Below the pieces are notes generated by a model. It was given only the letters and a program-made list of their open reading frames with translations, was not told the DNA's origin and searched no databases. DNA of 64,000 nucleotides from positions 141,226 through 205,225 of the forward strand of contig CALXZL010000002.1 in NCBI GenBank assembly GCA_944393215.1, given 5' to 3'. A program made the translations under genes and the position numbers. The DNA comes from an uncultured Alphaproteobacteria bacterium (lineage in GTDB: Bacteria > Pseudomonadota > Alphaproteobacteria > RF32 > CAG-239). Every line of letters starts with the position of its first letter. Within the stretch, counting starts at the first letter, position 1. This document shows positions 1 through 9,251 of the stretch, piece by piece.

Positions 1-66
1 GGATAAAATCCGGATCATAAACATCAAGGCATCTGGCTAAAAATTTTTCAGATACAGTATCCAACA
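1..66 (-). CDS. Partial CDS (N-terminus only; the gene continues past the left window edge); hypothetical protein
   Basis: The reverse complement of 1..66 reads ATG TTG GAT ACT GTA TCT GAA AAA TTT TTA GCC... (MLDTVSEKFLARCLDVYDPDF...) and stays open to the window edge. It lies downstream of the DUF262 genes on the same strand. Confidence 0.3.
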
Positions 67-214
67 TTTTGATAATACCACATTTTTATTTAAAAAAAAT
101 AAATTCTTTATAAGATTATGACTCAAAAAAATCATTTTTTAAATGGATATTCTATAGTAGCCTAATGAGAACACAAACAAATACTCAAGCATTTTAAGGA
201 TGTCTCTTTTTTTT

Positions 215-2464
215 TCACAATTGAATCAATCCTCGATTATGAAGAAATTTGCGCAAGAGTTCCACTCTGTTTTTATAATCCATTTTTTTAGCATGATCGT
301 AAAAACCATCCACGACAAAAGGTTCATTATCTTTATCATACAAAACGAAGGCATCATTTTTACAAACAAGATAACAATCTTTATAAATCAATCGCTGTCC
401 ATAATCATTCCGATCAAGATGATCCGAATCAACAATTTTCAAATAAGGTAAAAAAGTACTATGAGGAAACATGCGTGATCCTTCCAAAACCAGGTACAAA
501 AACGGATTTTCTTCCTGTTTTTCATTACTTAATTTTCCTTGTCCTCCGGAACGAAATTCCGGATATTTAACATAGTAATAACACCACTTATATTGGTTTT
601 CCATCTCGCACCGGTCCATAAAATCCTGCGCAATTTGACCTAAAGAATCATTAGTAAACGGACCTTTTTTGAGAAGTTCTACTAAAATTCTATGTGTATC
701 TTCAAAACCGGTATTGGCACTTTTGTGAAATAATGAATTCCATGCAGAATCATTTTTGGGCGTTCCGATCTGATATCTACCGTTTGCTTCTTTCTGCCCA
801 TAAAAATCAATCGACATCAAAGCACAACTTATTTTATCCAAATCACACTTAAACAAGGAAATAAAATTATCGGCAAGATCCAAATTATCTAAACCAACAA
901 TACTAACCTGCCCCTTCAAACGCGGATGATCCTCCAACTTATATAAATTTTCTTGCAACTCGGGCTTTTCAGACAAAAGTTTTATTTTTGCTTTTTCTTC
1001 CTCAATCTGATGCGTATTAAAACCGTTTTTCGAATTCGGAAGATTATCCAAATTTCCGAACCGAATAATATAATTAACTTGTTTTAAGATAGCAGGAATA
1101 CGGCTTCTGTTGCGTCTTTCTGCCAATTCATCATCCGAATTGGAAATCAAATTATGAACAATACGAATTCGGCGAACAAAATCATCATATGTAATTTTAT
1201 CTTTATGCATCAAATAAAAAACAATAGCATATAAAAGCACCATCCTATTCAACGGAAATTGGCGCACATTTCCATTCGTCGGAGAAAAAGAGAACAAACA
1301 ATCTTCAAAAATATCAATTTTACCGGAAACAACAATTTTTTGACCATTAGTCTCATAGTTTCCCTTATCAGAAGAAATGTTGGTCATAAAAGAATTTAAA
1401 AATTCTTTAGGCGTTTGCTTATTATCCAACTCCCGCCAAACATCAAAACTATTTTCTAAAAAGAGAAGATTTTGTTTTGCAGATGCACAATCTTTAGAAA
1501 AATAGGATGAAATAAGGGTAAAATCATCGGCATCTGCTTTTCTCTGACCATATCTTTTGTAACCGATAATATCACAAATAAAACGAAAATAATTCAAAAA
1601 CAAATCATCAATAAGCCCTTTAAATTTTCCTTGCTCATCAATACAATATTTCCATAAAAGATCAGTCCAGTCTCCATCTATTTTTTTTATAATGTTTTCG
1701 GAAATTCTTTGATTATTTTCTTTATTTGTTTTTTGATCAACTTCCTTCAACTGACGTTCAAACTCGGCTTTAAATTGCTCAAAGTTGGTCAAAGGTTTGC
1801 CACGAGAGTTCATTTTAATGTAAAGATCATCGGTCAATCCCATTTTCTTCATGGGTAAGAAATAAAAGCTTATGTTTTTTAATTTTTCCCATAAACCGAA
1901 AACTTCTGCAAAGCGTTCATGAATAGCTTCCAACATCGTCAACATTGAGCTGATGGTCGGATCACTGTGCCAAGTTTTGTAAAACCAAGGTTGATCAATA
2001 ACGGCAGATTTAATATCTTGGGAAGAATATGGCAGATGAGAAATTAAGTCAGCACAAAAACATTTGGAAGAATAACGCGTTTCATAAGTAAATTTAGATA
2101 AGAAATCTCTTTCCTCGGGCAGCTTGTTTTTTCCGCTTTCAAGAGCATAAGCATTAGCGGCATAACAATACAAAAGGAAAAGCGTTGTCAACCTTTGTTG
2201 TCCGTCAAGAGGAGTCAAAATACCTTCGGCATCTATGTCCCCATAAATAAAATCAAGGCAAATCGAAGATTCTGTTACTGTTACTGCCTTATATAAAGAT
2301 TCTAAAAAATGTTTACGAACATTGGTAACCGTAATATTATCGCGTCCTTGAGCATAATCTCTTTGAATTTGAGGAATAACAATTTTTTGAATTTTGAGCG
2401 GTTGATCATCATCCGAAAAATCAGTATTAAAAATGTCGGGAAAGGAAAGTAATAAAGCAGACAT
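215..2464 (-). CDS. DUF262 (ParB-like/GmrS-like) domain protein, 749 aa. The C-terminal half has no recognisable His-Me (DUF1524) motif.
   Basis: N-terminal motifs IPQIQRDYAQGR and LDGQQRLTTLFLL are the DUF262 hallmarks (I-P-x-x-QR-x-Y-x-W and DGQQR-L-T). It sits in tandem with a second DUF262 gene on the same strand. Confidence 0.7.
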   Translation of the reverse strand: MSALLLSFPDIFNTDFSDDDQPLKIQKIVIPQIQRDYAQGRDNITVTNVRKHFLESLYKAVTVTESSICLDFIYGDIDAEGILTPLDGQQRLTTLFLLYCYAANAYALESGKNKLPEERDFLSKFTYETRYSSKCFCADLISHLPYSSQDIKSAVIDQPWFYKTWHSDPTISSMLTMLEAIHERFAEVFGLWEKLKNISFYFLPMKKMGLTDDLYIKMNSRGKPLTNFEQFKAEFERQLKEVDQKTNKENNQRISENIIKKIDGDWTDLLWKYCIDEQGKFKGLIDDLFLNYFRFICDIIGYKRYGQRKADADDFTLISSYFSKDCASAKQNLLFLENSFDVWRELDNKQTPKEFLNSFMTNISSDKGNYETNGQKIVVSGKIDIFEDCLFSFSPTNGNVRQFPLNRMVLLYAIVFYLMHKDKITYDDFVRRIRIVHNLISNSDDELAERRNRSRIPAILKQVNYIIRFGNLDNLPNSKNGFNTHQIEEEKAKIKLLSEKPELQENLYKLEDHPRLKGQVSIVGLDNLDLADNFISLFKCDLDKISCALMSIDFYGQKEANGRYQIGTPKNDSAWNSLFHKSANTGFEDTHRILVELLKKGPFTNDSLGQIAQDFMDRCEMENQYKWCYYYVKYPEFRSGGQGKLSNEKQEENPFLYLVLEGSRMFPHSTFLPYLKIVDSDHLDRNDYGQRLIYKDCYLVCKNDAFVLYDKDNEPFVVDGFYDHAKKMDYKNRVELLRKFLHNRGLIQL

Positions 2465-2493
2465 CAGTTATTCTCCTGTGTAAGAAAAATCTT

Positions 2494-9068: not shown

Positions 9069-9140
9069 CACTGTGAGATTTTCTTGCTCCGCAAATTTTA
9101 CAGGCTGGTTGCCGACAAACAAACAGAAGCCCTCCACAAA

Positions 9141-9174
9141 AAAAATCCCTTCCGCTTTGGAAAGGGATTTTTTA
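9141..9174. terminator. Bidirectional rho-independent terminator between the helicase operon and the tRNA
   Basis: The hairpin tcccttcc-gctt-tggaaaggga is flanked by an A-run on one side and a T-run on the other. Confidence 0.6.
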
Positions 9175-9251
9175 TGGTGGGCCCTGATGGACTCGAACCA
9201 ACGACCAGACCGTTATGAGCGGCCTGCTCTAACCAACTGAGCTAAGGGCCC
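9175..9251 (-). tRNA. tRNA with anticodon CAU. It is either elongator tRNA-Met or lysidine-modified tRNA-Ile2; the D-arm and T-arm resemble E. coli ileX.
   Basis: The minus-strand read is GGGCCCTTAGCTCAGTTGGTTAGAGCAGGCCGCTCATAACGGTCTGGTCGTTGGTTCGAGTCCATCAGGGCCCACCA. It has a 7-bp acceptor stem, a GTTCGAGTC T-loop, a CT-CAT-AA anticodon loop, and an encoded CCA. Confidence 0.85.

Follow-up and report, generated by a model that had tools for sequence, protein, structure and literature searches.

The stretch analysed here, termed the window, comprises 64,000 nucleotides of contig CALXZL010000002.1 from an uncultured Alphaproteobacteria bacterium. Its segment at positions 1–9251 had been proposed, in an earlier note made from the sequence alone, to be an accessory island which ends at the 3′ end of a tRNA gene. 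Five substantial genes lie within this segment, three on the minus strand and two on the plus strand. The features of the segment and of the adjoining rpoD region are as follows, with protein lengths in amino acids (aa).

1–214, minus strand: left end of the island, intergenic DNA and the start of a 101-aa open reading frame (ORF) from position 67 which continues past the window edge, function unassigned.
215–2464, minus strand: GmrSD2, a 749-aa DUF262 protein and second gene of the DUF262 pair (Pfam GmrSD_N).
2494–4224 as called (ORF extensible to 4338), minus strand: GmrSD1, 576 aa, first gene of the pair (Pfam GmrSD_N, 6e-32).
4295–5182, minus strand: ankyrin-repeat protein of 295 aa, at the head of the minus-strand operon (Pfam Ank_2, Ank_4 and Ank_5).
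5183–5605, no strand: divergent promoter region of ~420 bp separating the two operons (promoter-like consensus matches).
5606–6628, plus strand: p340, a near-orphan of 340 aa with no family assignment.
6639–9068 as called (ORF 6612–9068), plus strand: UvrD/HelD-like superfamily 1 (SF1) helicase, 809 aa, or 818 aa from 6612 (Pfam UvrD-helicase).
9147–9165, no strand: terminator hairpin with an A-run (9140–9146) and a T-run (9166–9173) on its sides (terminator scan).
9175–9251, minus strand: tRNA-Ile2, anticodon CAU, 3′ end toward the island (ARAGORN; Rfam, 64.1 bits).
9359–9796, minus strand: orf145 (called as 139 aa), conserved hypothetical with its own terminator at 9326–9353.
9862–11928, minus strand: rpoD.
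12065–13921, minus strand: dnaG, with yqeY next, also on the minus strand.

The genes form two divergent operons. The first runs from the ankyrin gene through GmrSD1 to GmrSD2 on the minus strand, ends at 215 and is directed away from the tRNA, and the second (p340, then the helicase) lies on the plus strand and ends near the tRNA. The helicase appears to be translationally coupled to p340. The best sigma-70-like sites within positions 1–10000 are at 5495–5466 on the minus strand (11/12) and 5554–5581 on the plus strand (10/12), both being consensus matches only, and the promoter region also holds a small ORF (5195–5416, called as 43 aa) whose reality is doubtful. The gene coordinates and broad gene calls of the earlier note (ORFs, DUF262, ankyrin, UvrD helicase, tRNA and rpoD/dnaG/yqeY) were all recovered, and its observation as a whole was partly confirmed, with several descriptive details corrected. 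For example, a bidirectional terminator had been given to both operons at the tRNA; the hairpin is indeed usable in both directions, but only the helicase operon ends there. The yqeY-dnaG-rpoD block, described as following immediately, is present, but orf145 lies between the tRNA and rpoD.

At the right-hand end, the tRNA reads as tRNA-Ile2(CAU), an orthologue of E. coli ileX. Its best E. coli matches are the tRNA-Ile genes ileX and ileY (85.7% identity over 76 of 77 nt), and the CAT anticodon, a G1-C72 pair and C4-G69/C5-G68 can be read off the sequence. In tRNA-Ile2(CAU), C34 is converted to lysidine by TilS and the tRNA is charged with isoleucine; the anticodon here is presumably lysidine-modified in the same way. 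The methionine identity under which this tRNA(CAU) had initially been read therefore had to be replaced, since both tRNA-Met and tRNA-fMet are ruled out by the match to E. coli tRNA-Ile together with the elongator-type G1-C72 pair.

The ileX gene of E. coli K-12 is found ~700 bp downstream of rpoD and shares its strand. Among the loci and contigs compared in this study (designated by L-numbers), a tRNA(CAU) also follows rpoD in L014–L016, L022, L032 and many of the Alphaproteobacteria fetched, hence the tRNA of the window is part of an ancient dnaG-rpoD-tRNA-Ile2 neighbourhood and forms the core boundary of a hotspot. A hairpin equivalent to 9147–9165 stands behind the orthologous tRNA in L014, L015, L016, L099 and L100 and behind E. 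coli ileX, and inter-species homology stops just past it. We read this hairpin as the tRNA's own terminator, bidirectionally usable. As the tRNA retains this native-type terminator, the island junction is distal to it, with the variable segment starting left of the hairpin at ~9139. On the other side of the tRNA, orf145 shares 30% identity with the ORF preceding the tRNA in L016 and is placed on the core side, outside the island.

The rpoD side of the tRNA is polymorphic too, as three strains (L004, L005 and L012) carry ~980 bp extra between rpoD and orf145 (window 9766–9799). This segment encodes a DUF1847 protein and a 132-aa orf145 paralogue which shares a VGCPCFICD motif. In L126 and L127 the tRNA-Ile2 is convergent with rpoD-dnaG-yqeY, which sit 4–6 kb downstream on the opposite strand, implying an inversion of the tRNA segment with variable genes between tRNA and rpoD; partial contigs of the L127 species with this convergent arrangement are L119, L120, L123, L130 and L136.

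The left border was located using contigs found among ENA metagenome contigs by exact GmrSD2 and RpoD proteins. One of these, L001, shares 12.5 kb with the window at 99.99% identity and continues 10 kb leftward. It holds, in leftward order, the 101-aa ORF, a META-domain gene, a 110-aa ORF, rnhB, a 182-aa ORF and an N6/N4 methyltransferase with a RAMA domain, beyond which lie two ppx/gppA genes, ftsJ, DUF1653, rsmB and flagellar genes. The left boundary had been said to lie outside the window; it is indeed beyond position 1, and the META-domain gene, ~465 bp (~0.47 kb) to the left, is the island's true left border, giving an island of ~9.6 kb in all. The META-rnhB-methyltransferase-ppx-…-fliE block is syntenic in L096, L099/L100, L105, L107/L108 and L137 (RnhB 71–82% identical), and this far-side core block can be described as META-rnhB-methyltransferase-ppx-…-flgBC. 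Two further loci, L101 and L103 (RnhB 68–69% identical), have wholly different synteny and are uninformative. The RAMA-domain methyltransferase (L001 15078–16175) is the most conserved among the flank proteins compared, being 90–95% identical across species with RnhB only 71–82% identical. Among the matches listed in a GTDB genome scan, the best RpoD identity was 81%, and these matches belong to uncultured gut and rumen Alphaproteobacteria.

Between these conserved flanks, the gene content differs among species. Both flanks are present in L099 and L100, and there ~8 kb of unrelated genes (NUDIX, HAD, YjbR, a 499-aa protein and GH77) separates the tRNA from META. Behind its tRNA, L016 has genes for a metallophosphoesterase, a CoA-disulfide-reductase-like protein and sugar modification. 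Searching with the island proteins by tblastn gave zero homologues in the sampled stretches of L016, L096, L099 and L100, where flank proteins were found, and none of the five island genes is in the sampled interval of L105; the sequences of L016, L096 and L105 cover only part of the tRNA–META interval. The exception is L137, which has a non-orthologous DUF262 pair, 51–53% identical, a few kb from META. Turnover is also visible from strain to strain within related species. Strains of the L099 species differ in the part nearest the tRNA, where one has AbiEii and DUF2726, and a metagenome scan with the tRNA sequence added 20 further loci, with many strain-level indels directly behind the tRNA. 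L123 has a 9.3-kb strain-specific transporter/regulator segment there, without a recombinase.

These comparisons uphold the claim of an accessory island, as the flanks are conserved in sister species and the contents of the interval are entirely different. The suggested synteny check likewise bore it out: the rpoD-tRNA side is conserved down to E. coli and the island interval is variable. We conclude that the segment is, on the gene content compared, a genuine lineage-specific accessory island in a hotspot, of an ordinary kind. L137 is the closest sister species (RnhB 82%, methyltransferase 95% and Ppx 94% identical), hence a DUF262 pair of only 51–53% identity beside flanks of 82–95% points to independent acquisition or xenologous replacement of the pairs in L137 and the window. 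The pair of organism L138, although set in another genomic context, is at least as close to the window pair as that of L137.

Within the species, by contrast with the variation between species, the island is fixed. All contigs with an identical RpoD (20 of 20) carry the five island genes at the same position, and the variants are small, internal indels only. A 2.2-kb deletion in L008 (window 4521–6764) takes out p340 and leaves both the ankyrin gene and the helicase truncated, L011 has a frameshifted GmrSD1 split into 196 and 379 aa, and a 417-bp indel in L006, L008 and L011 removes the 101-aa ORF. The p340 and helicase genes are 99.5–99.9% identical between strains, a core-gene level. The peak of within-species diversity is GmrSD2 (95.7–96.7% identity between strains), in which substitutions and indels are confined to aa ~150–400, with both ends invariant and the length ranging from 735 to 756 aa. 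This suggests diversifying selection or recombination acting on one surface region, and by analogy the variable middle of GmrSD2 is a candidate recognition or phage-targeted surface.

Several of these observations, and others, weigh against reading the segment as a horizontally acquired defence cluster. With the island in all 20 contigs, its accessory status rests on the comparison between species, and species whose proteins are 70–80% identical would be expected to have lost some synteny in any case. Composition sets the segment apart little. The island genes have a GC content of 0.358, about one standard deviation (SD) from the 0.403 ± 0.039 of the rest of the window, their GC content at third codon positions (GC3) is 0.345 as against 0.389 ± 0.068, and their codon bias B (0.30 vs 0.34) is no different. 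The main proposal also leaves the role of the ankyrin gene unexplained, and p340 has no informative homology and a poor AlphaFold2 (AF2) model (predicted local distance difference test score, pLDDT, 59).

The earlier note had advised comparing GC skew and codon usage with the rest of the genome; the comparison of GC content and codon usage with the rest of the window gave this mild AT shift with the same codon bias. Further low-GC patches (0.30–0.36) with low-GC3 genes are found at 17000–18000, 19000–21000, 24000–26000, 40000–43000, 45000–50000, 53000–54000 and 62400–64000, and these could be further accessory segments. Low GC alone therefore does not set 1–9 kb apart, and composition and codon usage were dropped as a sign of foreign origin, being weak and non-distinctive.

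Some of the same points would suit an explanation without any island, in which vertically inherited, fast-evolving genes happen to sit at a synteny breakpoint beside a tRNA: the position of the genes is constant across the contigs of the species, the similarity of p340 and the helicase between strains is that of core genes, and the codon bias is indistinguishable from that of the remaining window, which has low-GC patches of its own. We regard this as very unlikely, however. Apart from the divergent pair of L137, the genes are absent from the sampled equivalent interval in sister species, and that pair is far less similar than the flank genes around it (51–53% vs 82–95%). Their best homologues are on Firmicutes plasmids and in gut Firmicutes and Bacteroidota, the same interval turns over between strains in relatives, and some incongruence between gene and species trees is already suggested.

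How the island arrived is a separate question. Neither the island genes nor those in the 10 kb to the left in L001 include an integrase or transposase, and no second copy of the tRNA 3′-end 16-mer (ccatcagggcccacca), allowing ≤3 mismatches, occurs in the window or in the same 10 kb. A general search for direct and inverted repeats gave nothing convincing that brackets the segment. The report that no integrase or att (attachment-site) repeat is visible in the window is thus upheld, and the recommended search left of position 1 for both also came back empty over 10 kb. The island is now immobile, without mobility genes, and fixed in the species. Of the original interpretation, the accessory island stands, but nothing in this genome demonstrates that an integrative element inserted at the 3′ end of the tRNA.

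In relatives, the site behind the same tRNA is nevertheless recombinationally active. Directly behind the orthologous tRNA-Ile2 in 13 related loci is a tRNA-end unit of ~175–210 bp (L099 at 877–1066 and ~1876–2082, L100 at 755–943, L117, L119–L123, L127, L128, L131, L133 and L136). It consists of a first terminator, a conserved sequence of ~150 nt and a direct copy of the last 16–19 nt of the tRNA including CCA, and behind it stands a second terminator. The ~150-nt sequence contains a 10-bp hairpin (CTCGAACCAAC/GTTGGTTYGA) and further hairpins, and RNAalifold predicted 33 pairs in the unit, three with compensatory changes. In Rfam only the tRNA was matched, with no tmRNA or known RNA family, and these identities were rejected for the unit. 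L130 is without precisely the unit compared with strains of the same species, which makes it a presence/absence polymorphism, and the window has the configuration without it. The unit may represent either a small RNA or a miniature element that is bracketed by att sites and dependent on a recombinase.

The sister-species strain L125 (ULLG01023273.1) matches L133 at 99% identity as far as 35 nt beyond the tRNA, where the homology is lost. At 420–2512 nt downstream of the tRNA it encodes DUF2924 and a serine recombinase of the large type (Resolvase, Recombinase and Zn_ribbon_recom domains). This gene content indicates that L125 carries a mobile element at the same tRNA site, and that the site can probably serve as a recombinase target in this clade. 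At L131, a 274-aa protein with a penicillin-binding transpeptidase domain, of class D beta-lactamase-like size, is encoded on the minus strand 220–1044 nt downstream of the tRNA.

A recombinase acting at the tRNA-Ile2 3′ end could have delivered the island or a single module of it, with the integrase and distal att site later deleted. This would fit the direct copies of the tRNA end 170–210 bp downstream in the 13 loci, the loss in L130 of exactly the unit between copies, the two units which bracket the NUDIX gene in L099, and the DUF2924 gene and recombinase which begin 0.4 kb after the tRNA end in L125. Furthermore, ileX is listed as an insertion site of the locus of adhesion and autoaggregation (LAA) island in E. 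coli (PMC7545054). We nevertheless consider this route unlikely for the window, where neither integrase, transposase nor tRNA-end repeat was found to 10 kb on the left, and where a native-type terminator follows the tRNA directly and resembles the second terminator of relatives, that is, the unoccupied configuration. The two modules are also distributed separately elsewhere, and the 9.3-kb strain-specific segment of L123 is likewise without a recombinase. The most economical reading is that the hotspot is fed in several ways: some lineages would have received site-specific elements, and others new genes through homologous recombination between the conserved flanks. The island itself is a composite of the two modules, which are distributed independently in other organisms.

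The first module is the DUF262 pair. Both proteins match the Pfam family PF03235 GmrSD_N (DUF262), GmrSD1 at 6e-32 and the other at 4e-22, and both translations contain the DGQQR motif for nucleoside triphosphate (NTP) binding. They had been described as DUF262/DUF1524 genes; DUF262 is present in both, but GmrSD_C (DUF1524) is detected in GmrSD1 only and below threshold (E=0.0078, around LEHIHAQH), where the C-terminus has a degenerate, His-Me-like nuclease motif, ‘SLEHIHAQH…N’. In the 749-aa GmrSD2, Pfam gave no DUF1524 match, even sub-threshold, and the long C-terminal region without a Pfam match has a predicted fold like the C-terminal domain (CTD) of SspE. In PADLOC, the N-terminal domain of GmrSD1 matched HEC-06, Orf5 and SspE, and the ankyrin protein matched PDC-M72A (2e-16). 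An ankyrin gene beside the DUF262 pair was not present in the pair loci compared from other organisms.

Tandems of this type are widespread. On a Peptoclostridium acidaminophilum megaplasmid, GmrSD1 and GmrSD2 homologues with 52% and 46% identity over their full length lie between IS3 and IS21 transposases. A DUF262 tandem is also found on a Paenisporosarcina plasmid, where GmrSD1 is 36% identical, and in gut-metagenome contigs of unidentified organisms, there beside a TIR-methyltransferase gene. The arrangement of a ~570-aa and a ~720–750-aa protein recurs in L116, L115, L137 and L138–L140, the first gene having a faint GmrSD_C and the second none, and the homologous pairs abut or overlap by 4 bp in L137, L138 and the Paenisporosarcina plasmid. 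The GmrSD2 family is very large, with named members from Lachnospiraceae, Eubacteriales and Bacteroidaceae.

By analogy with TgvAB, GmrSD, BrxU and SspE, we infer that the two DUF262 proteins are the subunits of an NTP-dependent type IV restriction enzyme which would sense and cut modified phage DNA. In the TgvAB system of V. cholerae, a DUF262-only protein and a DUF262+DUF1524 protein are both needed to restrict phages with glucosylated 5-hydroxymethylcytosine (glucosyl-5hmC) (PMC11014532; see also the review PMC10952713). TgvAB is located on Vibrio pathogenicity island 2 (VPI-2) and belongs to the GmrSD/BrxU/SspE family, and the pair resembles it in having two adjacent DGQQR DUF262 genes in one operon, one gene with a recognisable or weak DUF1524-type region and the other without. 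As in a TgvAB-like module, the pair itself is conserved as a unit across phyla. It differs in that the gene order is reversed, the DUF1524-bearing gene coming first with a sub-threshold match, the second protein is larger (749 aa) with its SspE-CTD-like predicted fold, and the ankyrin gene heads the operon. On its architecture, the pair appears to be a TgvAB-like two-gene module. With the homologues found here, the TgvAB-type module of two DUF262 genes becomes a very large family that crosses phyla, in which the order with the nuclease-bearing gene first is conserved, and a diversifying middle region is placed in the second subunit of such a pair.

The second module combines p340 and the helicase. 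For p340 there was no Pfam match at 1e-3. It gave Phage_int_SAM_1 at E=0.013 and the N-terminal part of NCBIfam XerA at 6e-5; the protein is helical, with a weak integrase-type SAM-like segment at aa 144–217 and no catalytic recombinase domain. A hidden integrase was therefore rejected, the match being weak, N-terminal and without a catalytic domain. Only five clusters were found among 5.8 billion proteins, a profile search gave 64 representatives among 1.84 billion, and the best PDB match had E = 0.17, to unrelated proteins. We consider p340 to be probably a DNA-binding protein. The helicase matches UvrD-helicase (7e-39) and UvrD_C in Pfam and UvrD/PcrA in PDB (1e-24), as expected for an SF1 UvrD/PcrA-type motor, and has an N-terminal extension of ~220 aa with no fold assigned. 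PADLOC models for RTasHel, the helicase associated with defence-associated reverse transcriptases (DRT), and GajB scored 3.5e-43 and 6e-42, with no family threshold passed.

The NCBIfam model of helicase IV (NF008276), matched mainly at aa 509–812, gave 235 bits against a cutoff of 543, and membership of HelD/helicase IV was rejected. With this as the best NCBIfam match, an operon <1 kb from the rpoD operon and high conservation within the species, the module might be thought a housekeeping HelD-type RNA polymerase factor kept beside rpoD for functional reasons. Such a role is highly improbable given the score far under the family cutoff, the absence of the operon from the stretches sampled around the locus in sister species, and the deletion of the helicase N-terminus in L008 without loss of the lineage. 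The homologues are in unrelated, defence-like contexts, and the PADLOC models for GajB and the DRT-associated helicase score comparably.

Gabija was also considered. A UvrD-type SF1 helicase with a smaller upstream partner in a defence-type neighbourhood is common to both, but Gabija pairs GajB with the OLD-family nuclease GajA, whereas signatures of an ATPase, TOPRIM, OLD or any other nuclease are missing from p340. The helicase also exceeds GajB by ~300 aa, its N-terminal region is novel, and its score is better with the helicase IV model. Gabija was therefore rejected despite the GajB matches, as p340 had no nuclease or ATPase match in PADLOC, Pfam or NCBIfam and no GajA was found by PADLOC.

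In L109–L111, a 53%-identical p340 homologue lies beside a 59%-identical helicase, near HipA, NOV_C and an SLFN-type helicase. The two genes form a rare module, which we infer to be a second defence or DNA-surveillance system, in which p340 would target or regulate the helicase motor. It is possible, if doubtful, that they are an undescribed two-gene anti-phage system which may cooperate with the DUF262 pair, and/or that the ~200-bp unit behind the tRNA in relatives is a new kind of miniature, recombinase-dependent element or a small RNA.

Both module types meet in one further locus. On the Paenisporosarcina antarctica plasmid (L115, NZ_CP038016.1, 39222–45816), a UvrD-like helicase and a DUF262 pair form one strand-run with gaps of ≤45 bp, the helicase being 37% identical to aa 476–812 of the window helicase. 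The arrangement hints that the two types of module may be functionally connected, though not as a general rule, since the pair and the helicase occur apart elsewhere.

Taken as a whole, the best explanation, and one we hold to be likely, is a horizontally acquired, defence-type cluster of two modules in a hotspot. The ~9.6-kb cluster would occupy a hypervariable hotspot between two conserved core blocks; both modules would have been acquired horizontally as units and then fixed in the species, and would now evolve as defence loci, with diversification of GmrSD2 and deletions or frameshifts in some strains. The gene content, the conserved flanks, the variable interval, the modular distribution and the lack of an integrase or att repeat are shown directly; the defence function, mechanism and acquisition route are proposals. 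Defence is suggested by the Pfam and PADLOC matches, the DGQQR motif, the TgvAB precedent, the diversity concentrated in GmrSD2 and the decayed alleles of L008 and L011. The locus is a well-supported example of a familiar phenomenon and leaves current concepts unchanged. It places a hotspot on the ancient rpoD-tRNA-Ile2 linkage in uncultured Alphaproteobacteria of the gut and rumen, a clade of which little is known, and this tRNA-Ile2 hotspot is a convenient place to mine for defence and accessory genes in these organisms. The more novel leads are the rare pair of a helicase and a small protein, which is a candidate for a defence system, and the short unit between tRNA-end copies in loci outside the window.

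The core side of the locus compares closely with the rpsU-dnaG-rpoD…ileX region of E. coli, where tRNA-Ile2(CAU), 86% identical, likewise follows rpoD on the same strand at a distance of a few hundred bp and has its own terminator. Here, however, yqeY is in the place of rpsU as the upstream gene seen in the window, and a small ORF, not mug, lies between rpoD and the tRNA. The island side is best compared with defence islands bounded by tRNA or core genes, such as the VPI-2 defence cluster of V. cholerae and the tRNA-linked islands of E. coli, among them LAA at ileX, pheV and selC. It differs from these in having no integrase, att repeats, transposase or conjugation genes, in a junction beyond the tRNA terminator, and in being fixed in the species. 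It is like them in its conserved flanks, one of which is a tRNA 3′ end, in cargo which varies among relatives and strains, in the clustering of at least two defence-type modules, and in module homologues found on plasmids and beside insertion sequence (IS) elements.

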